In this document: one piece after another, positions 1-50,569 of the stretch | Layout of the letters: each line of letters starts with the position of its first letter | Numbering within the stretch: the stretch's first letter is position 1 | DNA from: Eledone cirrhosa | Taxonomy: Eukaryota | Reading direction: 5' to 3' | Assembly: GCA_964016885.1 (NCBI GenBank) | Contig: OZ024741.1 | Coordinates: forward strand, 252,898,001 to 252,962,000 | DNA length: 64,000 nucleotides | Made by a program: the position numbers and the translations under genes | Notes under the pieces: generated by a model | Told to the model about the DNA's origin: nothing | Seen by the model: the letters and a program-made list of their open reading frames with translations, nothing else | Database searches by the model: none

Positions 1-294
1 TTCTGGAAGAAATCTGCTGTATTCAGACCTGGAGAGGAAATGGGCTCTGCCAAACTTAAGAACTGCCCTAGAAACACCATATACCACTATGGTGTCACTA
101 TGACTCCATCCTAACTATTCTATAGTGTATTGTGCCTGTTTAGTGATGATATGTTATATTCTATACAATGGTAATGCTCATTTGCATACGGTGCAAACTT
201 AGTGGGTTATAATTAATTAGCAGTAACAGTTAAGATAGTGTTAAGCACAATAGGAGTGTATATCAAATCATAAACTATATGCTTATATATAATA

Positions 295-9032: not shown

Positions 9033-9095
<63 letters not shown>

Positions 9096-9120
9096 CTGAG
9101 TTTTTTTGAATACTAATAAT

Positions 9121-9305
9121 TGTTTCTACTTTTGGCACAAGGCCAGCAATTATCCCAGTGCATTACTGGTACTTTATTTTATTGACCCCGTAAGGATGAA
9201 AGGCAAAGTTAACCTCGGCGGGATTTGAACTCAGATCATAAAGGGAGGTAACTCTATGCTTCAAAGCATGGCACCCGACCCTCTACCAATACTGCCAATC
9301 CACCA
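9121..9305 (-). mobile_element. group A SINE with 19-bp TSD
   Basis: Near full-length; TTTTTTGAATACTAATAAT at 9102-9120 and 9306-9324. Confidence 0.9.
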
Positions 9306-9732
9306 TTTTTTGAATACTAATAATACTATTTGATTCGTTTGCAATTATGCAAACAGCCTCTTTTAAGCCATTCTACAGTTCTGTTTACATGCCAACACAA
9401 GAGCAAGAATGAGGGGCTCATTCTACTTACATGGCTGAAAAGAGGCTGCTTGCATAATTGCATTTTTGCAAAATTACATTTATTGTATTCAGCCATGTAT
9501 AGCGATAACTTTTTGTTAGCAATTTGAATATGGCAAAGCCGGCCATTAATCTCTGGTATACAGGAAACTGACTGGATTATCTGCTGATATGAAAATCTGG
9601 ATGATCAGTGGATCTGCTAAGATGAAGATCTGACTGATCAGCGAGTCTGCTAATATGCAAATCAGGCTGATCTGTATATTTTAGAAAATATCATATATTT
9701 TCACTAGCTCTGACAGTTGGCAGGTGAACAGT

Positions 9733-9783
9733 GAATTGTACTGATGAAGCGTAATCACCCAGAAACATTAGTGTCTACAGTTC
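9733..9783 (+). ncRNA. type I hammerhead ribozyme motif (stem II degenerate)
   Basis: Stem I GAATTGTA/TACAGTTC; CTGATGA 9741-9747; GAAA 9762-9765; near-palindromic stem III ACATTAGTGT; GTC triplet ending at 9775. Confidence 0.7.
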
Positions 9784-10276
9784 TGTTTACATGCCAACAC
9801 AAGAGCAAGAATGAGGGGCTCATTCTACTGACATGGCTTAAAAGGGGCTTGTTTGCATAATTGCAAACGAATCGAATATTATTATTAATATTCGAAAAAC
9901 TCAGATTGCATTTATTGTATTCAGTCATGTAGAGCGATAACTTTTTGTTAGTTATTTTATATATATACATAATAATAATAATAATAATACTATTTATAGT
10001 TATGTATATAGTATAAACAACTATAAACAGGAAGGTCAGTAATTTCCTATTACCTTATTACCACTAAGAGAAATAGTTCAATGTAGGAACATGAGTTGTT
10101 TTACAGAGCAGGAAAATTAATAAATTATACAATTATCAAAGTTGTGTCCAAATCATTTAATAGCTGACAATCGTTTCTTCCAAACTCTCATTTGGAGTCA
10201 TCGGAGCATTATCAATGTTTGTACATATAATTAACCTCCTATTCAACTGAACAATAATATAGATACATATATATTC

Positions 10277-11002
10277 GAAGCTTGCATGCTCCGCTGGATG
10301 TGTAACAGTAATATACGTGAACGGCAGAGCATAAACGAACTAAGGAAAAAATTAGAAATAAGAGGGATCAGATGTTGTTTACTCGAGAGAAGGCTACGTT
10401 GGTATGGACACGTGATGCGCATGAAAGTCGATAGCTGTATAACAAAGTGCAGGGCAATAAAGATAGACGGTAGCCACGGAATAGGCAGACCTAGAAAAAC
10501 CTGGGACGAGCTGATAAACTCCGACCTCACACACTTACACCTCTCCAAGACAATGTCACTGGACCGAGACCTTTGGCGGTACTCAGTAACAGAGAAGACC
10601 CGCCTTACCTAAATACAAAGTAAAACCTACTACAGCCAGTAGGCATCTCTAACAAAATACCCCCCCCCCCACCCCCCACCCCATCCACACCACCCCCTTC
10701 TATGTAAAGTTATGTCGGTGCCACACCATCCAGGCCGAAACAAATGGGATTGTGTAGGTGTCACGACAAAAAAACACACAGTTCACGCTGTAATGTGGCC
10801 GTGTAGGCAACACGGTAAAAACCTCCCAGACCCACACTGTAAATGTGGTTGGTGTTAGGAAGGACATCCAGCCGTAGAAAACCTGCCAGACAGTCCTATG
10901 CGGGCAAGACAATCACTCTTGCCTCAAGTGGGACTACCCCCGTCCAAACCCATGCAAGCATGGAACACGGACGTTAAACGTTGATGATGATGATGATGAT
11001 GA
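10277..11002 (+). mobile_element. 5'-truncated RTE-clade LINE (ORF C-terminus + 3'UTR + (GAT)n tail)
   Basis: ORF 10286-10612 contains MLRWMC...RRLRWYGHVMRM...GRPRKTW...DRDLWR, typical of an RTE C-terminus. Confidence 0.9.
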
Positions 11003-21432: not shown

Positions 21433-21778
21433 TCATTTCATTTTCATCATTTCATTTTACGTTTTCTTTTCCCTGCTTGCAAGGGTGGGACGGGAACTGA
21501 TTCTGGCTTGATTTCTACAGCTGGATGCCCTTCCTAACACCAACCTCATTTACAGTGAGTGCTGGGTGCTTTTTTGCCATGGCACCTCCACGACCACTTT
21601 GCAGTGGAATGATATGGACCCCAGTCCCTATCATCTCATTTATACAGCTGAGTAAACTGGAGCAATGTGAAATAAAGTGTCTTGCTCAAGGAAACAACAC
21701 ATCACCCAGGCTGAGAATTGAACTCACAACCTTTCGATTGCAAGGCCAATGCTCTAACCACTAAGCCATGTGCCTCCA
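21433..21778 (-). mobile_element. group B SINE, full length
   Basis: Reverse-complement match to 14718-15212 with one internal unit. Confidence 0.9.
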
Positions 21779-22464: not shown

Positions 22465-22804
22465 ATCATCATCATCATCATTTTACGTCCGCTTTTTCCC
22501 TGCTTGCAAGGGTGGGACGGGAACTGATTCTGGCTTGATTTCTACAGCTGGATGCCCTTCCTAACACCAACCTCATTTACAGTGTGGGCTGGGTGCTTTT
22601 TTGCCATGGCACCTCCACGACCACTTTGCAGTGGAATGATAGGGACCCCAGTCCCTATCATCTCATTTCTACAGCTGAGTAAACTGGATCAATGTGAAAT
22701 AAAGTGTCTTGCTCAAGGAAACAACACATCACCCGGTCTGAGAATTGAACTCACAATCTTTCGATTGCAAGCCCAATGCTCTAACCACTAAGCCGTGTGC
22801 CTCC

Positions 22805-31566: not shown

Positions 31567-34500
31567 ATGGTAGAGCAGCAATCGTGAGGGTTGTCAGTAG
31601 TTGTGTGGTGGTCATAGTAGTGGTGGCAATGGTGAGGGTTGTTAGTAGTTGTGTGGTGGTCATAGTAGTGGTGGCAATGGTGGGGATTGTTAGTAGTTGT
31701 GTGGTGGTCATAGTAGTGGTGGCAATGGTGGGGATTGTTAGTAGTTGTGTGGTGGTCATAGTAGTGGTGGCAATGGTGGGGATTGTTAGTAGTTGTGTGG
31801 TGGTCATAGTAGTGGTGGCAATGGTGGGGATTGTTACTAGTTGTGTGGTGGTCATAGTAGTGGTGGCAATGGTGGGGATTGTTAGTAGTTGTGTGGTGGT
31901 CATAGTAGTGGTGGCAATGGTGGGGATTGTTAGTAGTTGTGTGGTGGTCATAGTAGTGGTGGCAATGGTGGGGATTGCTAGTAGTTGTGTTGTGGTCATA
32001 GTAGTGGTGGCAATGGTGGGATTGTTAGTAGTTGTGTGGTGGTCATAGTAGTGGTGGCAATGGTGGGATTGTTAGTAGTTGTGTGGTGGTCATAGTAGTG
32101 GTGGCAATGGTGGGATTGTTAGTAGTTGTGTGGTGGTCATAGTAGTGGTGGCAATGGTGGGATTGTTAGTAGTTGTGTGGTGGTCATAGTAGTGGTGGCA
32201 ATGGTGGGATTGTTAGTAGTTGTGTGGTGGTCATAGTAGTGGTGGCAATGGTGGGGATTGTTAGTAGTTGTGTGGTGGTCATAGTAATGGTGGCAATGGT
32301 GGGATTGTTAGTAGTTGTGTGGTGGTCATAGTAGTGGTGGCAATGGCGGGATTGTTAGTAGTTGTATGGTGGTCATAGTAGTGGTGGCAATGGTGGGGAT
32401 TGTTAGTAGTTGTGTAGTGGTCATAGTAGTGGTGGCAATGGTGGGGATTGTTAGTAGTTGTGTGGTGGTCATAGTAGTGGTGGCAATGGTGGGGATTGTT
32501 AGTAGTTGTGTGGTGGTCATAGTAGTGGTGGCAATGGTGGGGATTGTTAGTAGTTGTGTGGTGGTCATAGTAGTGGTGGCAATGGTGGGGATTGTTAGTA
32601 GTTGTGTGGTGGTCATAGTAGTGGTGGTAATGGTGGGATTGTTAGTAGTTGTGTGGTGGTCATAGTAGTGGTGGCAATGGTGGGATTGTTAGTAGTTGTG
32701 TGGTGGTCATAGTAGTGGTGGCAATGGTGGGGATTGTTAGTAATTGTGTGGTGGTCATAGTAGTGGTGGCAATGGTGGGGTTTGTTAGTAGTTGTGTGGT
32801 GGTCATAGTAGTGGTGGCAATAGTGGGGATTGTTACTAGTTGTGTGGTGGTCATAGTAGTGGTGGCAATGGTGGGGATTGTTAGTAGTTGTGTGGTGGTC
32901 ATAGTAGTGGTGGCAATGGTGGGGATTGTTAGTAGTTGTGTGGTGGTGATAGTAGTGGTGGCAATGGTGGGGATTGTTAGTAGTTGTGTGGTGGTGATAG
33001 TAGTGGTGGCAATGGTGGGGATTGTTAGTAGTTGTGTGGTGGTGATAGTAGTGGTCGCAATGGTGGGATTGTTAGTAGTTGTGTGGTGGTCATAGTAGTG
33101 GTGGCAATGGTGGGGATTGTTAGTAGTTGTGTGGTGGTCATAGTAGTGGTGGCAATGGTGGGGATTGTTAGTAGTTGTGTGGTGGTGATAGTAGTGGTGG
33201 CAATGGTGGGGATTGTTAGTAGTTGTGTGGTGGTGATAGTAGTGGTGGCAATGGTGGGGATTGTTAGTAGTTGTGTGGTGGTGATAGTAGTGGTCGCAAT
33301 GGTGGGATTGTTAGTAGTTGTGTGGTGGTCATAGTAGTGGTGGCAATGGTGGGGATTGTTAGTAGTTGTGTGGTGGTCATAGTAGTGGTGGCAATGGTGG
33401 GGATTGTTAGTAGTTGTGTGGTGGTGATAGTAGTGGTGGCAATGGTGGGATTGTTAGTAGTTGTGTGGTACTCATAGTAGTGGTGGCAATGGTGGGGATT
33501 GTTAGTAGTTGTGTGGTGGTCATAGTAGTGGTGGCAATGGTGGGGATTGTTAGTAGTTGTGTGGTGGTCATAGTAGTGGTGGTAATGGTGGGGATTGTTA
33601 GTAGTTGTGTGGTGGTCATAGTAGTGGTGGCAATGGTGGGATTGTTAGTAGTTGTGTGGTTGTCATAGTAGTGGTGGCAATGGTGGGGATTGTTAGTAGT
33701 TGTGTGGTTGTCATAGTAGTGGTGGCAATGGTGGGGATTGTTACTAGTTGTGTGGTGGTCATAATTAGTGGTGGCAATAGTGGGGATTGTTACTAGTTGT
33801 GTGGTGGTCATAATTAGTGGTGGCAATGGTGGGATTGTTAGTAGTTGTGGCAATGGTGGGATTGTTAGTAGTTGTGGCAATGGTGGGATTGTTAGTAGTT
33901 GTGTGGTTGTCATAGTAGTGGTGGCAATGGTGGGGATTGTTAGTAGTTGTGTGGTGGTTATAGTAGTGGTGGCAATAGTGGGGATTGTTACTAGTTGTGT
34001 GGTGGTCATAATTAGTGGTGGCAATGGTGGGATTGTTAGTAGTTGTGGCAATGGTGGGATTGTTAGTAGTTGTGTGGTGGTCATAGTAGTGGTGGCAATG
34101 GTGGGGATTGTTAGTAGTTGTGTAGTGGTCATAGTAGTGGTGGCAATGGTGAGGGTTGTTAGTAGTTGTGTGGTGGTCATAATTAGTGGTGGCAATGGTG
34201 GGATTGTTAGTAGTTGTGTGGTGGTCATAGTAGTGGTGGCAATGGTGGGGATTGTTAGTAGTTGTGTAGTGGTCATAGTAGTGGTGGCAATGGTGAGGGT
34301 TGTTAGTAGTTGTGTGGTGGTCATAATTAGTGGTGGCAATGGTGGGATTGTTAGTAGTTGTGTGGTGGTCATAGTAGTGGTGGCAATGGTGGGGATTGTT
34401 AGTAGTTGTGTGGTGGTCATAGTAGTGGTGGCAATGGTGGGGATTGTTAGTAGTTGTGTGGTTGTGATAGTAGTGGTGGCAATGGTGGGGATTGCTAGTA

Positions 34501-37500
34501 GTTGTGTTGTGGTCATAGTAGTGGTGGCAATGGTGGGGATTGTTAGTAGTTGTGTGGTGGACATAGTAGTGGTGGCAATGGTGGGATTGTTAGTAGTTGT
34601 GTGGTGGTGATAGTTGTGGTGGTGATAGTTGTGGTGGTAATGGTGGGATTGTTAGTAGTTGTGTGGTGGTCATAGTAGTGGTGGCAATGGTGGGATTGTT
34701 AGTAGTTGTGTGGTGGTCATAGTAGTGATGGCAATGGTGGGATTGTTAGTAGTTGTGTGGTGGTCATAGTAGTGGTGGCAATGGTGGGGATTGTTAGTAG
34801 TTGTGTGTTACTCATAGTAGTGGTGGCAATGGTGGGGATTGTTAGTAGTTGTGTTGTGGTCATATGAGTGGTGGCAATGGTGGGGATTGTTAGTAGTTGT
34901 GTGTTACTCATAGTAGTGGTGGCAATGGTGGGGATTGTTAGTAGTTGTGTTGTGGTCATAGTAGTGGTGGCAATGGTGGGGATTGTTAGTAGTTGTGTGG
35001 TGGTGATAGTAGTGGTGGCAATGGTGGGGATTGTTAGTAGTTGTGTGGTACTCATAGTAGTGGTGGCAATGTTGGGGATTGTTAGTAGTTGTGTGGTGGT
35101 CATAGTAGTGGTGGCAATGGTGGGATTGTTAGTAGTTGTGTGGTGGTCATAGTAGTGGTGGCAATGGTGGGATTGTTAGTAGTTGTGTGGTGGTCATAGT
35201 AGTGGTGGCAATGGTGGGGTTTGTTAGTAGTTGTGTGGTGGTCATAGTAGTGGTGGCAATGGTGGGGATTGTTAGTAGTTGTGTGGTTGTCATAGTAGTG
35301 GTGGCAATGGTGGGGATCGTTAGTAGTTGTGTGTTACTCATAATAGTGGTGGCAATGGTGGGGATTGTTAGTAGTTGTGTGGTGGTCATAGTAGTGGTGG
35401 CAATGGTGGGGATTGTTAGTAGTTGTGTTGTGGTCATAGGAGTGGTGGCAATGGTGGGGATTGTTAGTAATTGTGTGGTGGTCATAGTAGTGGTGGCAAT
35501 GGTGGGGATTGTTAGTAGTTGTGTGGTGGTCATAGTAGTGGTGGCAATGGTGGGGATTGTTAGTAGTTCTGTGGTGGTCATAGTAGTGGTGGCAATGGTG
35601 GGGATTGTTAGTAGTTGTGTGGTGGTCATAGTAGTGGTGGCAATGGTGGGATTGTTAGTAGTTGTGTGGTGGTCATAGTAGTGGTGGCAATGGTGGGGAT
35701 TGTTAGTAGTTGTGTGGTGGTCATAGTAGTGGTGGCAATGGTGGGGATTGTTAGTAGTTGTGTGGTGGTGATAGTAGTGGTGGCAATGGTGGGATTGTTA
35801 GTAGTTGTGTGGTGGTCATAGTAGTGGTGGCAATGGTGGGGATTGTTAGTAGTTGTGTGGTGGTCATAGTAGTGGTGGCAATGGTGGGGATTGTTAGTAG
35901 TTGTGTGGTGGTGATAGTAGTGGTGGCAATGGTGGGATTGTTAGTAGTTGTGTGGTGGTCATAGTAGTGGTGGCAATGGTGGGGATTGTTAGTAGTTGTG
36001 TGGTGGTCATAGTAGTGGTGGCAATGGTGGGGATTGTTAGTAGTTGTGTGGTGGTGATAGTAGTGGTGGCAATGGTGGGATTGTTAGTAGTTGTGTGGTA
36101 CTCATAGTAGTGGTGGCAATGGTGGGGATTGTTAGTAGTTGTGTGGTGGTCATAGTAGTGGTGGCAATGGTGGGGATTGTTAGTAGTTGTGTGGTGGTCA
36201 TAGTAGTGGTGGCAATGGTGGGGATTGTTAGTAGTTGTGTGGTGGTCATAGTAGTGGTGGCAATGGTGGGGATTGTTAGTAGTTGTGTGGTGGTCATAGT
36301 AGTGGTGGTAATGGTGGGATTGTTAGTAGTTGTGTGGTGGTCATAGTAGTGGTGGCAATGGTGGGGATTGTTAGTAGTTGTGTGGTGGTCATAGTAGTGG
36401 TGGCAATGGTGGGGATTGTTAGTAGTTGTGTGGTGGTCATAGTAGTGGTGGCAATGGTGGGGATTGTTAGTAGTTGTGTGGTGGTCATAGTAGTGGTGGT
36501 AATGGTGGGATTGTTAGTAGTTGTGTGGTGGTCATAGTAGTGGTGGCAATGGTGGGATTGTTAGTAGTTGTGTGGTGGTCATAGTAGTGGTGGCAATGGT
36601 GGGGATTGTTAGTAGTTGTGTAGTGGTCATAGTAGTGGTGGCAATGGTGAGGGTTGTTAGTAGTTGTGTGGTGGTCATAATTAGTGGTGGCAATGGTGGG
36701 ATTGTTAGTAGTTGTGTGGTGGTCATAGTAGTGGTGGCAATGGTGGGGATTGTTAGTAGTTGTGTAGTGGTCATAGTAGTGGTGGCAATGGTGAGGGTTG
36801 TTAGTAGTTGTGTGGTGGTCATAATTAGTGGTGGCAATGGTGGGATTGTTAGTAGTTGTGTGGTGGTCATAGTAGTGGTGGCAATGGTGGGGATTGTTAG
36901 TAGTTGTGTGGTGGTCATAGTAGTGGTGGCAATGGTGGGGATTGTTAGTAGTTGTGTGGTTGTGATAGTAGTGGTGGCAATGGTGGGGATTGCTAGTAGT
37001 TGTGTTGTGGTCATAGTAGTGGTGGCAATGGTGGGGATTGTTAGTAGTTGTGTGGTGGACATAGTAGTGGTGGCAATGGTGGGATTGTTAGTAGTTGTGT
37101 GGTGGTGATAGTTGTGGTGGTGATAGTTGTGGTGGTAATGGTGGGATTGTTAGTAGTTGTGTGGTGGTCATAGTAGTGGTGGCAATGGTGGGATTGTTAG
37201 TAGTTGTGTGGTGGTCATAGTAGTGATGGCAATGGTGGGATTGTTAGTAGTTGTGTGGTGGTCATAGTAGTGGTGGCAATGGTGGGGATTGTTAGTAGTT
37301 GTGTGTTACTCATAGTAGTGGTGGCAATGGTGGGGATTGTTAGTAGTTGTGTTGTGGTCATATGAGTGGTGGCAATGGTGGGGATTGTTAGTAGTTGTGT
37401 GTTACTCATAGTAGTGGTGGCAATGGTGGGGATTGTTAGTAGTTGTGTTGTGGTCATAGTAGTGGTGGCAATGGTGGGGATTGTTAGTAGTTGTGTGGTG

Positions 37501-40500
37501 GTGATAGTAGTGGTGGCAATGGTGGGGATTGTTAGTAGTTGTGTGGTACTCATAGTAGTGGTGGCAATGTTGGGGATTGTTAGTAGTTGTGTGGTGGTCA
37601 TAGTAGTGGTGGCAATGGTGGGATTGTTAGTAGTTGTGTGGTGGTCATAGTAGTGGTGGCAATGGTGGGATTGTTAGTAGTTGTGTGGTGGTCATAGTAG
37701 TGGTGGCAATGGTGGGGTTTGTTAGTAGTTGTGTGGTGGTCATAGTAGTGGTGGCAATGGTGGGGATTGTTAGTAGTTGTGTGGTTGTCATAGTAGTGGT
37801 GGCAATGGTGGGGATCGTTAGTAGTTGTGTGTTACTCATAATAGTGGTGGCAATGGTGGGGATTGTTAGTAGTTGTGTGGTGGTCATAGTAGTGGTGGCA
37901 ATGGTGGGGATTGTTAGTAGTTGTGTTGTGGTCATAGGAGTGGTGGCAATGGTGGGGATTGTTAGTAATTGTGTGGTGGTCATAGTAGTGGTGGCAATGG
38001 TGGGGATTGTTAGTAGTTGTGTGGTGGTCATAGTAGTGGTGGCAATGGTGGGGATTGTTAGTAGTTCTGTGGTGGTCATAGTAGTGGTGGCAATGGTGGG
38101 GATTGTTAGTAGTTGTGTGGTGGTCATAGTAGTGGTGGCAATGGTGGGATTGTTAGTAGTTGTGTGGTGGTCATAGTAGTGGTGGCAATGGTGGGGATTG
38201 TTAGTAGTTGTGTGGTGGTCATAGTAGTGGTGGCAATGGTGGGGATTGTTAGTAGTTGTGTGGTGGTGATAGTAGTGGTGGCAATGGTGGGATTGTTAGT
38301 AGTTGTGTGGTGGTCATAGTAGTGGTGGCAATGGTGGGGATTGTTAGTAGTTGTGTGGTGGTCATAGTAGTGGTGGCAATGGTGGGGATTGTTAGTAGTT
38401 GTGTGGTGGTGATAGTAGTGGTGGCAATGGTGGGATTGTTAGTAGTTGTGTGGTGGTCATAGTAGTGGTGGCAATGGTGGGGATTGTTAGTAGTTGTGTG
38501 GTGGTCATAGTAGTGGTGGCAATGGTGGGGATTGTTAGTAGTTGTGTGGTGGTGATAGTAGTGGTGGCAATGGTGGGATTGTTAGTAGTTGTGTGGTACT
38601 CATAGTAGTGGTGGCAATGGTGGGGATTGTTAGTAGTTGTGTGGTGGTCATAGTAGTGGTGGCAATGGTGGGGATTGTTAGTAGTTGTGTGGTGGTCATA
38701 GTAGTGGTGGCAATGGTGGGGATTGTTAGTAGTTGTGTGGTGGTCATAGTAGTGGTGGCAATGGTGGGGATTGTTAGTAGTTGTGTGGTGGTCATAGTAG
38801 TGGTGGTAATGGTGGGATTGTTAGTAGTTGTGTGGTGGTCATAGTAGTGGTGGCAATGGTGGGGATTGTTAGTAGTTGTGTGGTGGTCATAGTAGTGGTG
38901 GCAATGGTGGGGATTGTTAGTAGTTGTGTGGTGGTCATAGTAGTGGTGGCAATGGTGGGGATTGTTAGTAGTTGTGTGGTGGTCATAGTAGTGGTGGTAA
39001 TGGTGGGATTGTTAGTAGTTGTGTGGTGGTCATAGTAGTGGTGGCAATGGTGGGATTGTTAGTAGTTGTGTGGTGGTCATAGTAGTGGTGGCAATGGTGG
39101 GGATTGTTAGTAATTGTGTGGTGGTCATAGTAGTGGTGGCAATGGTGGGGTTTGTTAGTAGTTGTGTGGTGGTCATAGTAGTGGTGGCAATAGTGGGGAT
39201 TGTTACTAGTTGTGTGGTGGTCATAGTAGTGGTGGCAATGGTGGGGATTGTTAGTAGTTGTGTGGTGGTCATAGTAGTGGTGGCAATGGTGGGGATTGTT
39301 AGTAGTTGTGTGGTGGTGATAGTAGTGGTGGCAATGGTGGGGATTGTTAGTAGTTGTGTGGTGGTGATAGTAGTGGTGGCAATGGTGGGGATTGTTAGTA
39401 GTTGTGTGGTGGTGATAGTAGTGGTCGCAATGGTGGGATTGTTAGTAGTTGTGTGGTGGTCATAGTAGTGGTGGCAATGGTGGGGATTGTTAGTAGTTGT
39501 GTGGTGGTCATAGTAGTGGTGGCAATGGTGGGGATTGTTAGTAGTTGTGTGGTGGTGATAGTAGTGGTGGCAATGGTGGGGATTGTTAGTAGTTGTGTGG
39601 TGGTGATAGTAGTGGTGGCAATGGTGGGGATTGTTAGTAGTTGTGTGGTGGTGATAGTAGTGGTCGCAATGGTGGGATTGTTAGTAGTTGTGTGGTGGTC
39701 ATAGTAGTGGTGGCAATGGTGGGGATTGTTAGTAGTTGTGTGGTGGTCATAGTAGTGGTGGCAATGGTGGGGATTGTTAGTAGTTGTGTGGTGGTGATAG
39801 TAGTGGTGGCAATGGTGGGATTGTTAGTAGTTGTGTGGTACTCATAGTAGTGGTGGCAATGGTGGGGATTGTTAGTAGTTGTGTGGTGGTCATAGTAGTG
39901 GTGGCAATGGTGGGGATTGTTAGTAGTTGTGTGGTGGTCATAGTAGTGGTGGTAATGGTGGGGATTGTTAGTAGTTGTGTGGTGGTCATAGTAGTGGTGG
40001 CAATGGTGGGATTGTTAGTAGTTGTGTGGTTGTCATAGTAGTGGTGGCAATGGTGGGGATTGTTAGTAGTTGTGTGGTTGTCATAGTAGTGGTGGCAATG
40101 GTGGGGATTGTTACTAGTTGTGTGGTGGTCATAATTAGTGGTGGCAATAGTGGGGATTGTTACTAGTTGTGTGGTGGTCATAATTAGTGGTGGCAATGGT
40201 GGGATTGTTAGTAGTTGTGGCAATGGTTGGATTGTTAGTAGTTGTGGCAATGGTGGGATTGTTAGTAGTTGTGTGGTTGTCATAGTAGTGGTGGCAATGG
40301 TGGGGATTGTTAGTAGTTGTGTGGTGGTTATAGTAGTGGTGGCAATAGTGGGGATTGTTACTAGTTGTGTGGTGGTCATAATTAGTGGTGGCAATGGTGG
40401 GATTGTTAGTAGTTGTGGCAATGGTGGGATTGTTAGTAGTTGTGTGGTGGTCATAGTAGTGGTGGCAATGGTGGGGATTGTTAGTAGTTGTGTAGTGGTC

Positions 40501-43500
40501 ATAGTAGTGGTGGCAATGGTGAGGGTTGTTAGTAGTTGTGTGGTGGTCATAATTAGTGGTGGCAATGGTGGGATTGTTAGTAGTTGTGTGGTGGTCATAG
40601 TAGTGGTGGCAATGGTGGGGATTGTTAGTAGTTGTGTAGTGGTCATAGTAGTGGTGGCAATGGTGAGGGTTGTTAGTAGTTGTGTGGTGGTCATAATTAG
40701 TGGTGGCAATGGTGGGATTGTTAGTAGTTGTGTGGTGGTCATAGTAGTGGTGGCAATGGTGGGGATTGTTAGTAGTTGTGTGGTGGTCATAGTAGTGGTG
40801 GCAATGGTGGGGATTGTTAGTAGTTGTGTGGTTGTGATAGTAGTGGTGGCAATGGTGGGGATTGCTAGTAGTTGTGTTGTGGTCATAGTAGTGGTGGCAA
40901 TGGTGGGGATTGTTAGTAGTTGTGTGGTGGACATAGTAGTGGTGGCAATGGTGGGATTGTTAGTAGTTGTGTGGTGGTGATAGTTGTGGTGGTGATAGTT
41001 GTGGTGGTAATGGTGGGATTGTTAGTAGTTGTGTGGTGGTCATAGTAGTGGTGGCAATGGTGGGATTGTTAGTAGTTGTGTGGTGGTCATAGTAGTGATG
41101 GCAATGGTGGGATTGTTAGTAGTTGTGTGGTGGTCATAGTAGTGGTGGCAATGGTGGGGATTGTTAGTAGTTGTGTGTTACTCATAGTAGTGGTGGCAAT
41201 GGTGGGGATTGTTAGTAGTTGTGTTGTGGTCATATGAGTGGTGGCAATGGTGGGGATTGTTAGTAGTTGTGTGTTACTCATAGTAGTGGTGGCAATGGTG
41301 GGGATTGTTAGTAGTTGTGTTGTGGTCATAGTAGTGGTGGCAATGGTGGGGATTGTTAGTAGTTGTGTGGTGGTGATAGTAGTGGTGGCAATGGAGGGGA
41401 TTGTTAGTAGTTGTGTGGTACTCATAGTAGTGGTGGCAATGTTGGGGATTGTTAGTAGTTGTGTGGTGGTCATAGTAGTGGTGGCAATGGTGGGATTGTT
41501 AGTAGTTGTGTGGTGGTCATAGTAGTGGTGGCAATGGTGGGATTGTTAGTAGTTGTGTGGTGGTCATAGTAGTGGTGGCAATGGTGGGGTTTGTTAGTAG
41601 TTGTGTGGTGGTCATAGTAGTGGTGGCAATGGTGGGGATTGTTAGTAGTTGTGTGGTTGTCATAGTAGTGGTGGCAATGGTGGGGATCGTTAGTAGTTGT
41701 GTGTTACTCATAATAGTGGTGGCAATGGTGGGGATTGTTAGTAGTTGTGTGGTGGTCATAGTAGTGGTGGCAATGGTGGGGATTGTTAGTAGTTGTGTTG
41801 TGGTCATAGGAGTGGTGGCAATGGTGGGGATTGTTAGTAATTGTGTGGTGGTCATAGTAGTGGTGGCAATGGTGGGGATTGTTAGTAGTTGTGTGGTGGT
41901 CATAGTAGTGGTGGCAATGGTGGGGATTGTTAGTAGTTCTGTGGTGGTCATAGTAGTGGTGGCAATGGTGGGGATTGTTAGTAGTTGTGTGGTGGTCATA
42001 GTAGTGGTGGCAATGGTGGGATTGTTAGTAGTTGTGTGGTGGTCATAGTAGTGGTGGCAATGGTGGGGATTGTTAGTAGTTGTGTGGTGGTCATAGTAGT
42101 GGTGGCAATGGTGGGGATTGTTAGTAGTTGTGTGGTGGTGATAGTAGTGGTGGCAATGGTGGGATTGTTAGTAGTTGTGTGGTGGTCATAGTAGTGGTGG
42201 CAATGGTGGGGATTGTTAGTAGTTGTGTGGTGGTCATAGTAGTGGTGGCAATGGTGGGGATTGTTAGTAGTTGTGTGGTGGTGATAGTAGTGGTGGCAAT
42301 GGTGGGATTGTTAGTAGTTGTGTGGTGGTCATAGTAGTGGTGGCAATGGTGGGGATTGTTAGTAGTTGTGTGGTGGTCATAGTAGTGGTGGCAATGGTGG
42401 GGATTGTTAGTAGTTGTGTGGTGGTGATAGTAGTGGTGGCAATGGTGGGATTGTTAGTAGTTGTGTGGTACTCATAGTAGTGGTGGCAATGGTGGGGATT
42501 GTTAGTAGTTGTGTGGTGGTCATAGTAGTGGTGGCAATGGTGGGGATTGTTAGTAGTTGTGTGGTGGTCATAGTAGTGGTGGCAATGGTGGGGATTGTTA
42601 GTAGTTGTGTGGTGGTCATAGTAGTGGTGGCAATGGTGGGGATTGTTAGTAGTTGTGTGGTGGTCATAGTAGTGGTGGTAATGGTGGGTTTGTTAGTAGT
42701 TGTGTGGTGGTCATAGTAGTGGTGGCAATGGTGGGGATTGTTAGTAGTTGTGTGGTGGTCATAGTAGTGGTGGCAATGGTGGGGATTGTTAGTAGTTGTG
42801 TGGTGGTCATAGTAGTGGTGGCAATGGTGGGGATTGTTAGTAGTTGTGTGGTGGTGATAGTAGTGGTGGCAATGGTGGGATTGTTAGTAGTTGTGTGGTG
42901 GTGATAGTAGTGGTGGCAATGGTGGGGATTGTTAGTAGTTGTGTGGTGGTCATAGTAGTGGTGGTAATGGTGGGTTTGTTAGTAGTTGTGTGGTGGTCAT
43001 AGTAGTGGTGGCAATGGTGGGGATTGTTAGTAGTTGTGTGGTGGTCATAGTAGTGGTGGCAATGGTGGGGATTGTTAGTAGTTGTGTGGTGGTGATAGTA
43101 GTGGTGGCAATGGTGGGATTGTTAGTAGTTGTGTGGTGGTGATAGTAGTGGTGGCAATGGTGGGGATTGTTAGTAGTTGTGTGTTACTCATAATAGTGGT
43201 GGCAATGGTGGGGATTGTTAGTAGTTGTGTGGTGGTCATAGTAGTGGTGGCAATGGTGGGGATTGTTAGTAGTTGTGTTGTGGTCATAGTAGTGGTGGCA
43301 ATGGTGGGGATTGTTAGTAATTGTGTGGTGGTCATAGTAGTGGTGGCAATGGTGGGGATTGTTAGTAGTTGTGTGGTGGTCATAGGAGTGGTGGCAATGG
43401 TGGGGATTGTTAGTAATTGTGTGGTGGTCATAGTAGTGGTGGCAATGGTGGGGATTGTTAGTAGTTGTGTGGTGGTCATAGTAGTGGTGGCAATGGTGGG

Positions 43501-46500
43501 GATTGTTAGTAGTTGTGTGGTGGTCATAGTAGTGGTGGCAATGGTTGGGATTGTTAGTAGTTGTGTGGTGGTCATAGTAGTGGTGGCAATGGTGGGGATT
43601 GTTAGTAGTTGTGTGGTGGTGATAGTAGTGGTGGCAATGGTGGGATTGTTAGTAGTTGTGTGGTGGTCATAGTAGTGGTGGCAATGGTGGGGATTGTTAG
43701 TAGTTGTGTGGTGGTCATAGTAGTGGTGGCAATGGTGGGGATTGTTAGTAGTTGTGTGGTGGTGATAGTAGTGGTGGCAATGGTGGGATTGTTAGTAGTT
43801 GTGTGGTACTCATAGTAGTGGTGGCAATGGTGGGGATTGTTAGTAGTTGTGTGGTGGTCATAGTAGTGGTGGCAATGGTGGGGATTGTTAGTAGTTGTGT
43901 GGTGGTCATAGTAGTGGTGGTAATGGTGGGTTTGTTAGTAGTTGTGTGGTACTCATAGTAGTGGTGGCAATGGTGGGGATTGTTAGTAGTTGTGTGGTGG
44001 TCATAGTAGTGGTGGCAATAGTGGGGATTGTTACTAGTTGTGTGGTGGTCATAGTAGTGGTGGCAATGGTGGGGATTGTTAGTAGTTGTGTGGTGGTCAT
44101 AGTAGTGGTGGCAATAGTGGGGATTGTTACTAGTTGTGTGGTGGTCATAGTAGTGGTGGCAATGGTGGGGATTGTTAGTAGTTGTGTGGTGGTTATAGTA
44201 GTGGTGGCAATGGTGGGGATTGTTAGTAGTTGTGTGGTTGTGATAGTAGTGGTGGCAATGGTGGGGATTGTTAGTAGTTGTGTGGTGGTTATAGTAGTGG
44301 TGGCAATGGTGGGGATTGTTAGTAGTTGTGTGGTGGTCATAGTAGTGGTGGCAATGGTGGGGATTGTTAGTAGTTGTGTGGTGGTTATAGTAGTGGTGGC
44401 AATGGTGGGGATTGTTAGTAGTTGTATGGTGGTCATAGTAGTGGTGGCAATGGTGGGGATTGTTAGTAGTTGTGTGGTGGTCATAGTAGTGGTGGCAATG
44501 GTGGGGATTGTTAGTAGTTGTGTGGTGGTTATAGTAGTGGTGGCAATGGTGGGGATTGTTAGTAGTTGTATGGTGGTCATAGTAGTGGTGGCAATGGTGG
44601 GGATTGTTAGTAGTTGTGTGGTGGTCATAGTAGTGGTGGCAATGGTGGGGATTGTTAGTAGTTGTATGGTGGTCATAGTAGTGGTGGCAATGGTGGGGAT
44701 TGTTAGTAGTTGTGTGGTGGTCATAGTAGTGGTGGCAATGGTGGGGATTGTTAGTAGTTGTGTGGTGGTTATAGTAGTGGTGGCAATGGTGGGGATTGTT
44801 AGTAGTTGTGTGGTACTCATAGTAGTGGTGGCAATGATGGCGACTGTTAGTAGTTGTGTGGTGGTCATAGTAGTGGTGGCAATGGTGGGGATTGTTAGTA
44901 GTTGTGTGGTGGTCATAGTAGTGGTGGCAATGGTGGGGATTGTTAGTAGTTGTGTGGTGGTTATAGTAGTGGTGGCAATGGTGGGGATTGTTAGTAGTTG
45001 TGTGGTGGTGATAGTAGTGGTGGCATTGGTGAGATTGTTACTAGTTGTGTGGTGGTCATAGTAGTGGTGGCAATGGTGGGGATTGTTAGTAGTTGTGTGG
45101 TGGTGATAGTAGTGGTGGCAATGGTGGGGATTGTTAGTAGTTGTGTGGTGGTCATAGTAGTGGTGGCAATGGTGGGGATTGTTAGTAGTTGTGTGGTGGT
45201 TATAGTAGTGGTGGCAATGGTGGCGATTGTTAGTAGTTGTGTGGTGGTGATAGTAGTGGTGGCATTGGTGAGATTGTTACTAGTTGTGTGGTGGTCATAG
45301 TAGTGGTGGCAATGGTGGGGATTGTTAGTAGTTGTGTGGTGGTGATAGTAGTGGTGGCAATGGTGGGGATTGTTAGTAGTTGTGTGGTGGTCATAGTAGT
45401 GGTGGCAATGGTGGGATTGTTAGTAGTTGTGTGGTGGTTATAGTAGTGGTGGCAATGGTGGGGTTTGTTAGTAGTTGTGTGGTGGTCATAGTAGTGGTGG
45501 CAATGGTGGGGATTGTTAGTAGTTGTGTGGTGGTCATAGTAGTGGTGGCAATGGTGGGGATTGTTAGTGGTTGTGTGGTGGTCATAGTAGTGGTGGCAAT
45601 GGTGGGGATTGTTAGTAGTTGTGTGGTGGTCGTAGTAGTGGTGGCAATGGTGGGATTGTTAGTAGTTGTGTGGTGGTCATAGTAGTGGTGGCAATGGTGG
45701 GGTTTGTTAGTAGTTGTGTGGTGGTCATAGTAGTGGTGGCAATGGTGGGGATTGTTAGTAGTTGTGTGGTGGTCATAGTAGTGGTGGCAATGGTGGGGAT
45801 TGTTAGTAGTTGTGTGGTGGTCATAGTAGTGGTGGCAATGGTGGGATTGTTAGTAGTTGTGTGGTGGTCATAGTAGTGGTGGCAATGGTGGGGATTGTTA
45901 GTAGTTGTGTGGTGGTCATAGTAGTGGTGGCAATGGTGGGGATTGTTAGTAGTTGTGTGGTGGTCATAGTAGTGGTGGCAATGGTGGGGATTGTTAGTAG
46001 TTGTGTGGTGGTCATAGTAGTGGTGGCAATGGTGGGGATTGTTAGTAGTTGTGTGGTGGTCATAGTAGTGGTGGCAATGGTGGGGATTGTTAGTAGTTGT
46101 GTGGTGGTCATAGGAGTGGTGGCAATGGTGGGGTTTGTTAGTAGTTGTGTGGTGGTCATAGTAGTGGTGGCAATGGTGGGGATTGTTAGTAGTTGTGTGG
46201 TGGTCATAGTAGTGGTGGCAATGGTGGGGATTGTTAGTAGTTGTGTGGTGGTCATAGTAGTGGTGGCAATGGTGGGGATTGTTAGTAGTTGTGTGGTGGT
46301 CATAGGAGTGGTGGCAATGGTGGGGTTTGTTAGTAGTTGTGTGGTGGTCATAGTAGTGGTGGCAATGGTGGGGATTGTTAGTAGTTGTGTGGTGGTCATA
46401 GTAGTGGTGGCAATGGTGGGATTGGTAGTAGTTGTGTGGTGGTCATAGTAGTGGTGGCAATGGTGGGGATTGTTAGTAGTTGTGTGGTGGTCATAATTAG

Positions 46501-49500
46501 TGGTGGCAATGGTGGGGATTGTTAGTAGTTGTGTGGTGGTCATAGTAGTGGTGGCAATGGTGGGGTTTGTTAGTAGTTGTGTGGTGGTCATAGTAGTGGT
46601 GGCAATGGTGGGGATTGTTAGTAGTTGTGTGGTGGTCATAGTAGTGGTGGCAATGGTGGGGATTGTTAGTAGTTGTGTGGTGGTCATAGTAGTGGTGGCA
46701 ATGGTGGGGATTGTTAGTAGTTGTGTGGTGGTCATAGTAGTGGTGGCAATGGTGGGGATTGTTAGTAGTTGTGTGGTGGTCATAGTAGTGGTGGCAATGG
46801 TGGGGATTGTTAGTAGTTGTGTGGTGGTGATAGTAGTGGTGGCAATGGTGGGATTGGTAGTAGTTGTGTGGTGGTCATAGTAGTGGTGGCAATGGTGGGG
46901 ATTGTTAGTAGTTGTGTGGTGGTCATAGTAGTGGTGGCAATGGTGGGGATTGTTAGTAGTTGTGTGGTGGTGATAGTAGTGGTGGCAATGGTGGGATTGT
47001 TAGTAGTTGTGTGGTGGTCATAGTAGTGGTGGCAATGGTGGGGATTGTTAGTAGTTGTGTGGTGGTCATAGTAGTGGTGGCAATGGTGGGGATTGTTAGT
47101 AGTTGTGTGGTGGTGATAGTAGTGGTGGCAATGGTGGGATTGTTAGTAGTTGTGTGGTACTCATAGTAGTGGTGGCAATGGTGGGGATTGTTAGTAGTTG
47201 TGTTGTGGTCATAGTAGTGGTGGCAATGGTGGGGATTGTTAGTAGTTGTGTGGTGGTCATAGTAGTGGTGGCAATGGTGGGGATTGTTAGTAGTTGTGTG
47301 GTGGTTATAGTAGTGGTGGCAATGGTGGGGATTGTTAGTAGTTGTGTGGTACTCATAGTAGTGGTGGCAATGGTGGGGATTGTTAGTAGTTGTGTGGTGG
47401 TCATAGGAGTGGTGGCAATGGTGGGGATTGTTAGTAGTTGTGTGGTGGTCATAGTAGTGGTGGCAATGGTGGGGATTGTTAGTAGTTGTGTGGTGGTGAT
47501 AGTAGTGGTGGCATTGGTGAGATTGTTAGTAGTTGCGTGGTGGTCATAGTAGTGGTGGCAATGGTGGGGAATGTTAGTAGTTGTGTGGTGGTCATAGTAG
47601 TGGTGGCAATGGTGGGGATTGTTAGTAGTTGTGTGGTGGTCATAGTAGTGGTGGCAATGGTGGGGATTGTTAGTAGTTGTGTGGTGGTGATAGTAGTGGT
47701 GGCAATGGTGGGATTGTTAGTAGTTGTGTGGTGGTCATAGTAGTGGTGGCAATGGTGGGGATTGTTAGTAGTTGTGTGGTGGTCATAGTAGTGGTGGCAA
47801 TGGTGGGGATTGTTAGTAGTTGTGTGGTGGTCATAGTAGTGGTGGTAATGGTGGGGTTTGTTAGTAGTTGTGTGGTGGTCATAGTAGTGGTGGCAATAGT
47901 GGGGATTGTTACTAGTTGTGTGGTGGTCATAGTAGTGGTGGCAATGGTGGGATTGTTAGTAGTTGTGTGGTGGTCATAGTAGTGGTGGCAATGGTGGGGA
48001 TTGTTAGTAGTTGTGTGGTGGTGATAGTAGTGGTGGCATTGGTGAGATTGTTAGTAGTTGCGTGGTGGTCATAGTAGTGGTGGCAATGGTGGGGATTGTT
48101 AGTAGTTGTATGGTGGTCATAGTAGTGGTGGCAATGGTGGGGATTGTTAGTAGTTGTGTGGTGGTCATAGTAGTGGTGGCAATGGTGGGGATTGTTAGTA
48201 GTTGTGTGGTGGTCATAGTAGTGGTGGCAATGGTGGGGATTGTTAGTAGTTGTGTGGTGGTGATAGTAGTGGTGGCAATGGTGGGATTGTTAGTAGTTGT
48301 GTGGTGGTCATAGTAGTGGTGGCAATGGTGGGGATTGTTAGTAGTTGTGTGGTGGTCATAGTAGTGGTGGCAATGGTGGGGATTGTTAGTAGTTGTGTGG
48401 TGGTCATAGTAGTGGTGGTAATGGTGGGGTTTGTTAGTAGTTGTGTGGTGGTCATAGTAGTGGTGGCAATGGTGGGGATTGTTAGTAGTTGTGTGGTGGT
48501 CATAATAGTGGTGGCAATGGTGGGGATTGTTAGTAGTTGTATGGTGGTCATAGTAGTGGTGGCAATGGTGGGGAATGTTAGTAGTTGTGTGGTGGTCATA
48601 GTAGTGGTGGCAATGGTGGGGATTGTTAGTAGTTGTGTGGTGGTCATAGTAGTGGTGGCAATGGTGGGGATTGTTAGTAGTTGTGTGGTGGTGATAGTAG
48701 TGGTGGCAATGGTGGGATTGTTAGTAGTTGTGTGGTGGTCATAGTAGTGGTGGCAATGGTGGGGATTGTTAGTAGTTGTGTGGTGGTCATAGTAGTGGTG
48801 GCAATGGTGGGGATTGTTAGTAGTTGTGTGGTGGTCATAGTAGTGGTGGTAATGGTGGGGTTTGTTAGTAGTTGTGTGGTGGTCATAGTAGTGGTGGCAA
48901 TAGTGGGGATTGTTACTAGTTGTGTGGTGGTCATAGTAGTGGTGGCAATGGTGGGGATTGTTAGTAGTTCTGTGGTGGTCATAGTAGTGGTGGCAATAGT
49001 GGGGATTGTTACTAGTTGTGTGGTGGTCATAGTAGTGGTGGCAATGGTGGGGATTGTTAGTAGTTGTGTGGTTGTCATAGTAGTGGTGGTAATGGTGGGG
49101 TTTGTTAGTAGTTGTGTGGTGGTCATAGTAGTGGTGGCAATGGTGGGGATTGTTAGTAGTTGTGTGGTGGTGATAGTAGTGGTGGCAATGGTGGGATTGT
49201 TAGTAGTTGTGTGGTACTCATAGTAGTGGTGGTAATGGTGGGGTTTGTTAGTAGTTGTGTGGTGGTCATAGTAGTGGTGGCAATGGTGGGGATTGTTAGT
49301 AGTTGTGTGGTGGTGATAGTTGTGGTGGCAATGGTGGGGATTGTTAGTAGTTGTGTGGTTGTCATAGTAGTGGTGGCAATGGTGGGGATTGTTAGTAGTT
49401 GTGTGTTACTCATAATAGTGGTGGCAATGGTGGGGATTGTTAGTAGTTGTGTTGTGGTCATAGGAGTGGTGGCAATGGTGGGGATTGTCAGTAATTGTGT

Positions 49501-50525
49501 GGTGGTCATAGTAGTGGTGGCAATGGTGGGGATTGTTAGTAGTTGTGTGGTGGTCATAGTAGTGGTGGCAATGGTGGGGATTGTTAGTAGTTGTGTGGTG
49601 GTCATAGTAGTGGTGGCAATGGTGGGATTGTTAGTAGTTGTGTGGTGGTCATAGTAGTGGTGGCAATGGTGGGGATTGTTAGTAGTTGTGTGGTGGTCAT
49701 AGTAGTGGTGGCAATGGTGGGGATTGTTAGTAGTTGTGTGGTGGTGATAGTAGTGGTCGCAATGGTGGGATTGTTAGTAGTTGTGTGGTACTCATAGTAG
49801 TGGTGGCAATGGTGGGGATTGTTAGTAGTTGTGTGGTGGTCATAGTAGTGGTGGCAATGGTGGGGATTGTTAGTAGTTGTGTGGTGGTCATAGTAGTGGT
49901 GGCAATGGTGGGATTGTTAGTAGTTGTGTGGTGGTTATAGTAGTGGTGGCAATGGTGGGGATTGTTAGTAGTTGTGTGGTGGTCATAGTAGTGGTGGTAA
50001 TGGTGGGTTTGTTAGTAGTTGTGTGGTACTCATAGTAGTGGTGGCAATGGTGGGGATTGTTAGTAGTTGTGTGGTGGTCATAGTAGTGGTGGTAATGGTG
50101 GGTTTGTTAGTAGTTGTGTGGTACTCATAGTAGTGGTGGCAATGGTGGGGATTGTTAGTAGTTGTGTGGTGGTCATAGTAGTGGTGGCAATAGTGGGGAT
50201 TGTTACTAGTTGTGTGGTGGTCATAGTAGTGGTGGCAATGGTGGGGATTGTTAGTAGTTGTGTGGTGGTTATAGTAGTGGTGGCAATAGTGGGATTGTTA
50301 GAAGTTGTGTGGTGGTCATAGTAGTGGTGGCAATGGTGGGGATTGTTAGTAGTTGTGTGGTTGTGATAGTAGTGGTGGCAATGGTGGGGATTGTTAGTAG
50401 TTGTGTTGTGGTCATAGTAGTGGTGGCAATGGTGGGGATTGTTAGTAGTTGTGTGGTGGTCATAGTAGTGGTGGCAATGGTGGGGATTGTTAGTAGTTGT
50501 GTGGTGGTCGTAGTAGTGGGGGCAA
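31567..50525 (+). repeat. ~19-kb satellite array, 48/47-bp unit, roughly 400 copies
   Basis: Consensus GTGGTGGTCATAGTAGTGGTGGCAATGGTGGGGATTGTTAGTAGTTGT; the 47-bp variant lacks one G. Confidence 0.98.
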
Positions 50526-50569
50526 TGGTTGTATTAATAGTATTAGGGAAAATGCTACTGACAGATTTC

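Follow-up and report, generated by a model that had tools for sequence, protein, structure and literature searches.

A hammerhead-bearing insertion in the window

Can a genomic insertion keep a record of the self-cleavage of the RNA from which it was copied? The question is raised by a locus in the window, that is, the whole stretch of 64,000 nucleotides of Eledone cirrhosa DNA analyzed here (contig OZ024741.1, positions 252,898,001 to 252,962,000), in which a direct repeat begins close to the predicted cleavage site of a hammerhead ribozyme motif. A preliminary description of the locus had taken this as a sign that the template RNA's 5' end was made by self-cleavage and then reverse-transcribed. 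We found that positions 9092-9957 represent a single insertion from a tandem repeat family whose non-coding, 441-nt unit carries a type I hammerhead motif. Positions in the repeat family are numbered relative to the predicted cut, +1 being the first nucleotide 3' of it, and the features of the locus are as follows.

9034..9091 (no strand): (TA)n tract, the left insertion target, from a tandem-repeat scan of the window
9092..9120, approximate (- strand): inverted arm, distal piece, covering unit ~+109 to +143 and having a 3' end of the short class, from alignment
9121..9305 (- strand): unrelated SINE-like repeat, a later insertion with a 19-bp target duplication; the window has at least 8 other copies
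9306..9371 (- strand): inverted arm, proximal piece, unit +127 to +58, from alignment
9372..9775 (+ strand): repeat unit, first pass, starting at -2 relative to the predicted cut, from direct-repeat alignment
9579..9672 (+ strand): three ~33-bp subrepeats (period 33, 2.8 copies); in the family majority every one contains a word like ATGCARAT
9666..9700 (+ strand): site resembling a host U2 snRNA promoter element in the family majority, partly deleted in the window copy; a lead only
9733..9783 (+ strand): type I hammerhead motif with a predicted cut following C9775; C9750, where the family has G, breaks stem II
9776..9957 (+ strand): partial second pass that reaches unit +186 (3' end of the long class, bearing the ~45-nt tail), with TA/ATA repeats beyond it

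Most of what had been described at the locus was recovered. The direct repeat with an offset of 402 lies at 9372-9447 / 9774-9849 (96% identity) and extends, across a ~30-nt deletion, to 9525/9957; the inverted copy of part of it corresponds to 9306-9371 plus approximately 9092-9120; and the degenerate ~32-bp subrepeats placed at 9570-9675 are those of 9579-9672. The unit of ~400 bp holds for the window copy only, which is shorter than the 441-nt family unit owing to deletions. The inverted arm is split by the later repeat, which we take to be a SINE from a B-box-like motif and which is flanked by the 19-bp target duplication (9102-9120 = 9306-9324). Given a cut after C9775, the upstream copy has its +1 at 9374; the match indeed begins within 2 nt of this position, running 2 nt further 5' (TC, 9372-9373).

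Elsewhere in the window, a 125-aa stop-free frame at 10235-10612 (+) presumably represents the C-terminal end of a LINE reverse transcriptase, which it resembles. A 19-kb array at 31578-50529 consists of ~396 copies of a 48-bp unit (94% matches) with extreme strand skew. Two weak tRNA-like matches just at the Rfam threshold (21707-21770 and 22738-22794, both -) are probably SINE heads.

A dispersed, non-coding repeat family

We searched the 3.0-Gb genome for relatives of the window copy; a DNA search yielded 2,869 candidates. The 18-mer just 3' of the cut had 1,736 exact matches, compared with 0 for its reversed control, and the family comprises at least 1,736 segments genome-wide. The majority unit, built from 120 loci, is 441 nt long with 38% GC, and the median identity of copies to it is 91%. 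In the doubled family unit there is no ATG frame >50 aa (the longest is 50 aa) and the longest stop-free frame is 97 aa, in keeping with the earlier view that the unit lacks credible coding content. The window copy holds one hammerhead, and two complete hammerheads occur in single loci elsewhere (for example, L002, L004 and L005). Thus the family combines sequence marks of a non-LTR retrozyme: a non-coding tandem unit, one hammerhead per unit, low GC and many copies. The SINE lies inside the unit in 43 of 304 family loci (L031-L334, some of which overlap); 42 of these 43 insertions fall at unit +100..+127, an ATT-rich patch that is a strong SINE insertion hotspot, with one junction nearly fixed at +109.

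Judged from its sequence, the family would be a new non-LTR retrozyme, or non-autonomous Penelope-like, family. Non-LTR retrozymes and their likely origin from Penelope-like elements (PLEs) are already published (PMC7229834; bioRxiv 10.64898/2026.07.22.740005, as far as the available text of each goes). A survey of titles, largely from openly accessible literature, on hammerheads with Penelope in octopus or in cephalopod retrotransposons found no description of this family.

The hammerhead motif

All elements of the hammerhead claimed at 9733-9783 can be read directly in the window copy: stem I (9733-9740/9776-9783), CTGATGA (9741-9747), GAAA (9762-9765), a stem III with a TTAG loop and a GTC ending at C9775, after which the cut is predicted. 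Stem II is disrupted by a C for G at 9750, and an Rfam scan of the window copy recognized no hammerhead at the gathering threshold or at E<=10. The preliminary description had predicted that a rebuilt consensus would restore stem II as GGGT/ACCC, and the family majority has exactly this, reading 8-bp stem I, CTGATGA, A-GGGT-loop-ACCC-A, GAAA and 3-bp stem III. It thus has the type I layout, with CUGAUGA, GAAA and UH forming a core around three stems (8, 4 and 3 bp for stems I, II and III) and stem I open. The majority core is conserved at 95-100% per column, and overall core conservation is 95-96%, compared with the median copy identity of 91%. Stem II is kept in 74 of the 135 copies with an intact core, and common stem I variants (T-G/C-G, A-T/G-T) preserve pairing. 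One natural intact copy, L069, is identical to the majority between -45 and +60. Ten letters of stem III are predicted to be able to pair with a second copy (-8.8 kcal/mol), a pairing described for animal hammerheads that act as dimers (PMC4209133, in the text available).

Two features may count against ribozyme activity. The G10.1-C11.1 pair directly flanking the core is absent from the majority, where A and A flank GGGT/ACCC; in other PLE-associated hammerhead motifs of the same genome, T and T flank stem II. In addition, in the fold of lowest predicted energy (-16.4 kcal/mol) the core is paired to stem III; the active fold reaches -10.2 kcal/mol.

Probable insertion by Penelope-type enzymes

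The family carries the signature of Penelope insertion, namely (TA)n targets, inverted arms in a tail-out arrangement and two classes of 3' ends ~45 nt apart. A first sample consisted of 93 copies with an anchor at +15..+40, taken from 90 loci among the first 100 listed of 589 matches; 52 of the 93 ended at +138..150 and 23 at +176..193, so that 75 fall in the two classes. Together with a second sample, a TA microsatellite abuts 73 of 85 short-class 3' ends. There were 91 simple two-arm, tail-out loci; both ends could be classed in 42, each of which paired one short with one long end (42/42 vs 21 expected, p 2e-13), and at least one end was unclassed in the remaining 49. The window copy obeys the same rule (+143 and +186). 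Contigs built from three runs on a single sample, which may be the source sample, agreed with the assembly: their loose ends led into (TA)n at +143 and +148. One-end tail extension, an inverted 5'-truncated copy and partial tandems, the hallmarks of PLE mobilization, are thus all found. In the available text of the two sources, the Penelope tail occurs at one end only (PMC8557442) and its length equals the gap between two internal start sites of reverse transcription (PMC11167929); the end pairing of the family matches both.

The host genome has candidate enzymes, with frames of up to 1,096 aa that combine a reverse transcriptase (RT) with a C-terminal GIY-YIG domain, several of them with the CX4CxxC linker that has been tied to Neptune (PMC8557442, in part). 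Stop-free examples are L365:3809-6622 (-, 938 aa), L366:1688-4219 (+, 844 aa) and L367:775-4062 (+, 1,096 aa). Several other hammerhead variants adjoin Penelope-like RT and GIY-YIG frames in the same genome. No homology to the unit was found in 50 GIY-YIG loci (two of which are the same place), drawn from 150 scored of 10,597 candidates; PLE mobilization is therefore read from the geometry of the insertions. On the strength of these sequence patterns, the family was likely pasted in by Penelope-type retrotransposon enzymes.

The preliminary description had likened the locus to the pseudo-LTR (pLTR) arrangement of Penelope-like insertions. The Penelope-like architecture stands; the pLTR part is not borne out in the loci examined, in each of which the repeat is a stand-alone tandem unit rather than the pLTR of an ORF-bearing copy, and no RT and GIY-YIG ORF between pLTRs was found in the frames and loci scanned. 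A version in which the unit is the pLTR of an autonomous Penelope element, its copies being truncated 3' ends and the ORF-bearing copies having escaped sampling, could draw on the hammerheads present in PLE pLTRs (PMC4209133), on the relation of Xenopus retrozymes to pLTRs (bioRxiv 10.64898/2026.07.22.740005; both in the available text) and on our sampling of ~330 loci out of thousands. Against this, long copies continue 5' into another unit rather than into an ORF (66 two-pass loci, up to 884 nt collinear); 100 frames chosen from the longest of 350 flanking frames gave no GIY-YIG match in Pfam (0/100) and no homologous element; and in the two places where a unit copy accompanies a GIY-YIG frame, the two are separate insertions in TA tracts. 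We consider this version very unlikely.

The explanation that we consider probable is that a non-coding 441-nt hammerhead repeat is inserted into (TA)n tracts by a PLE RT/endonuclease acting in trans, a minority of its templates being self-cleaved at the predicted site. Reverse transcription by the Penelope protein would start internally in the RNA, from ~+143/148 for one strand of the target and from ~+186/192 for the second, and the two cDNAs would join at their truncated ends. Most templates would exceed unit length or be continuous across the cut, while cDNAs made from linear, cut RNA would run off at +1. High copy number, TA targets, ragged 5' truncation and a nucleotide-level excess of ends at +1 are all observed and favour this explanation. 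The dispensability of ribozyme cleavage for Penelope insertion in vitro (PMC11167929, in part) may weigh against it.

An excess of 5' ends at the predicted cut

As a check, the preliminary description had proposed asking whether 5' ends pile up at the cleavage site. We searched the genome for 18-mers starting at a given boundary and preceded by two non-family letters, and aligned every match to separate true ends from point changes. Five boundaries were measured (+1, -4, +5, +10 and -14), the last two being controls chosen after the first three counts. True 5' ends accounted for 32 of 45 matches at +1, compared with 5 of 16 at -4, 5 of 22 at -14, 11 of 23 at +5 and 12 of 18 at +10, an excess with a binomial p of 1.3e-7 vs the four controls, 1.6e-8 vs the upstream pair and 1.4e-4 vs the downstream pair. 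It persisted when ends with at least 4 nt of microhomology (5 of the 32 at +1) were dropped, leaving 27 at +1 vs 5, 10, 11 and 4 at -4, +5, +10 and -14, and when look-alike junctions were collapsed by eye (22 vs 5, 9, 10 and 4 in the same order, p 1e-4). Simulated uniform truncation gave near-equal counts, with +1 at most ~1.3 times any control, and in simulation TA flanks favoured -4 rather than +1. The anchor pools were about equal in unselected loci (54, 50, 54, 51 and 52), a genome-wide count being available for the +1 pool only. First-pass copies made up 17 of 19 checked +1 ends, as expected from a cut monomer. Assuming a detection chance of ~0.56 (our own estimate), ends at the cut account for ~3% of the 1,736 anchored segments, vs ~0.5% upstream and ~1% downstream. 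Read contigs around the cut included ends at -1, +3 and +8 among the matches listed.

Counts of ends are thus highest at +1, form a shoulder on its 3' side and drop on its 5' side, which is what run-off from cut RNA with some end loss would give. Positions +1..+4 (TGCA) are a palindrome at the end of stem I. Fold-back junctions centred on it (L049; L222, L232) would arise from both cDNAs running off at the cut, and, as perfect fold-backs are missed by the search pattern, the +1 count may be conservative. A coverage jump at +1 in the majority alignment was discarded as an artefact of the reference edge.

Could the excess arise while the ribozyme leaves its templates uncut? In such an account the repeat is mobilized by PLEs, but the +1 ends are due to RNA or cDNA structure (the end of stem I, and TGCA/CATG palindromes that favour template switching). 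In its favour, ends at +5 and +10, inside stem I, are also at ~2 times background. Fold-backs of stem I account for three of the +1 junctions, a TG microhomology recurs in several, prediction gives the inactive fold the greater stability, and 8 of 9 Xenopus retrozyme dimers were uncleaved in vitro (bioRxiv 10.64898/2026.07.22.740005, in the text available). Structure would leave unexplained, however, the 27 +1 ends without long microhomology and the 17 of 32 in which no inverted arm was detected. Moreover, the -4 control also begins with TG yet has only 5 ends, and the six-fold drop in counts just 5' of the cut is the step expected from an RNA end. On balance we find this account unlikely. A promoter starting at +1, or repeated copying from a single source locus that happened to be truncated there, is highly improbable: an inverted arm starting near +16 is common to five junctions, but flanks are otherwise all different across the +1 ends, 22 ends are left once shared junctions are collapsed, +1 is a pyrimidine, and the sole promoter-like site predicts a start near -53. 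The excess is therefore probably a small footprint of hammerhead cleavage in vivo, as far as genomic ends can tell, and self-cleavage likely marks a minority of templates.

The junction of the window copy itself is ambiguous, as it starts 2 nt upstream of the cut. A start at -2 cannot come from cleaved RNA unless TC is due to the inverted arm or to chance. The family continuation of the inverted arm would read GCCATGTC, so that the TC at 9372-9373 could derive from either arm. Taking ~3-5% cut ends times a 6% probability of a fortuitous match, and putting ordinary ends at -2/-1 at ~1%, we roughly estimate the chance that this junction was made by cleavage at about one in three; an ordinary truncation at -2/-1 is more likely. 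The claim that a self-cleaved 5' end was reverse-transcribed is thus supported, by the excess, at the level of the family; ends at the cut make up ~3% of segments, and most copies cross the cut.

Template form and a promoter lead

The cut is crossed by 72 of 93 copies in the +15..+40 sample and by 18 of 24 of those reaching +15 in a mid-unit sample (90 copies from the first 91 of 193 matches listed, window copy excluded). This majority agrees with the preference for unprocessed RNA, the main substrate in vitro according to the available text of PMC11167929. A strong second-pass wall of ends in the +15..+40 sample (4 of 6) was rejected, being unreplicated in the mid-unit sample, where 6 of 24 ended in +1..+15 (p 0.03) and none of 18 at the cut itself; no wall of 5' ends was seen upstream.

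In 66 loci one part of the unit is covered by two passes, with collinear stretches of up to 884 nt. Non-majority letters are shared four times as often between the passes of one locus (0.96%) as between loci (0.24%). We lean slightly towards circles, made by cleavage and ligation, as the templates of these loci, over uncut multimers from a tandem source; a circular template has been proposed for retrozymes (PMC7229834, in part).

A U2-promoter-like site upstream of the hammerhead is a lead only, drawn from sequence likeness. A two-part element at -58/-59 is common to four distinct U2 promoters of the host. The unit matches it best at -111, which would place a start at -53, in the 5' arm of stem I. 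This score was reached in 16 of 1000 shuffles and in 1 of 150 genomic flanks, with a model shaped after the likeness had been seen; leaving promoter L411 out of the model shifts the best site to -177. There is no excess of ends at the predicted start (4 ends, 0.41%/nt), and none at -49..-57. A U6-type motif in the unit was not significant (233 of 1000 shuffles). Among L385-L387, L410-L412 and L439, the U6 genes of the host have TATGCWAAT in common at -77 to -79, as well as a TATA at ~-30, and its U2 genes have RTCARTSRVT (-58/-59) and AGWAAAATAT in common; genes of both types occur in tandem arrays. A second tandem hammerhead family (L375:6800-8001, also L359; period ~510 nt, internal TA tracts) strongly matches the upstream motif of the host U6 genes at a site 89 nt ahead of its core.

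A full life cycle recorded in the copies, from a captured snRNA-type promoter starting at the 5' arm of the ribozyme through in vivo cleavage and ligation into circles, on which reverse transcriptase reads across the cut and rebuilds the upstream promoter, to twin-primed PLE insertion, is possible but rather doubtful. If true, the genome itself would supply direct proof that retrozymes move by means of PLE machinery and that this machinery uses cleaved RNA in vivo.

Comparison with known systems

The comparisons below draw on the available text of the cited sources. Like the animal non-LTR retrozymes (PMC7229834; bioRxiv 10.64898/2026.07.22.740005), the family has a non-coding tandem unit of a few hundred nucleotides (GC 38% here) with one type I hammerhead per unit and a short self-complementary stem III, in a genome where PLEs co-exist. 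It differs in forming dispersed insertions of 0.3-2 units with inverted arms rather than arrays, in the A.A beside stem II, in being known from genomic DNA alone, and in its PLE tail signature and spike of 5' ends, which those texts do not report for retrozymes. The enzyme moving animal retrozymes has so far been argued from co-occurrence and phylogeny; the strict rule of one short and one long end ties a retrozyme-like RNA to Penelope insertion chemistry.

With endonuclease-bearing (EN+) PLEs (Poseidon PAc, PMC11167929; Neptune/Naiad, PMC8557442) the family shares 5' truncation, partial tandems, an inverted 5' copy, a one-end tail, AT or (TA)n targets and a hammerhead upstream of the putative RT starts; unlike them, it has no ORF, and its tail is ~45 nt rather than 30-40. 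The function of Penelope-associated hammerheads has been called unclear (PMC8557442). RNA-seq of PAc is described without ends at the cut (PMC11167929), whereas genomic ends are enriched there in our family. In the literature examined we found no report of a genomic 5'-end excess at a hammerhead cut. The six-fold excess bounds cleaved templates at a few percent, and both the tail rule and the cut-end counts can be applied to any hammerhead repeat family in any assembled genome.

Newt satellite 2 is likewise a tandem hammerhead repeat, with an snRNA-type promoter cited in PMC2220036; the U2-promoter-like site is its counterpart here, as a weak sequence lead only. The HDV-like ribozyme of R2 belongs to a different ribozyme and retrotransposon class, and its cut defines the full-length end rather than the few percent of copies seen here, but it offers a precedent for genomic 5' junctions that are set by a ribozyme cut and varied through microhomology (PMC3774820).
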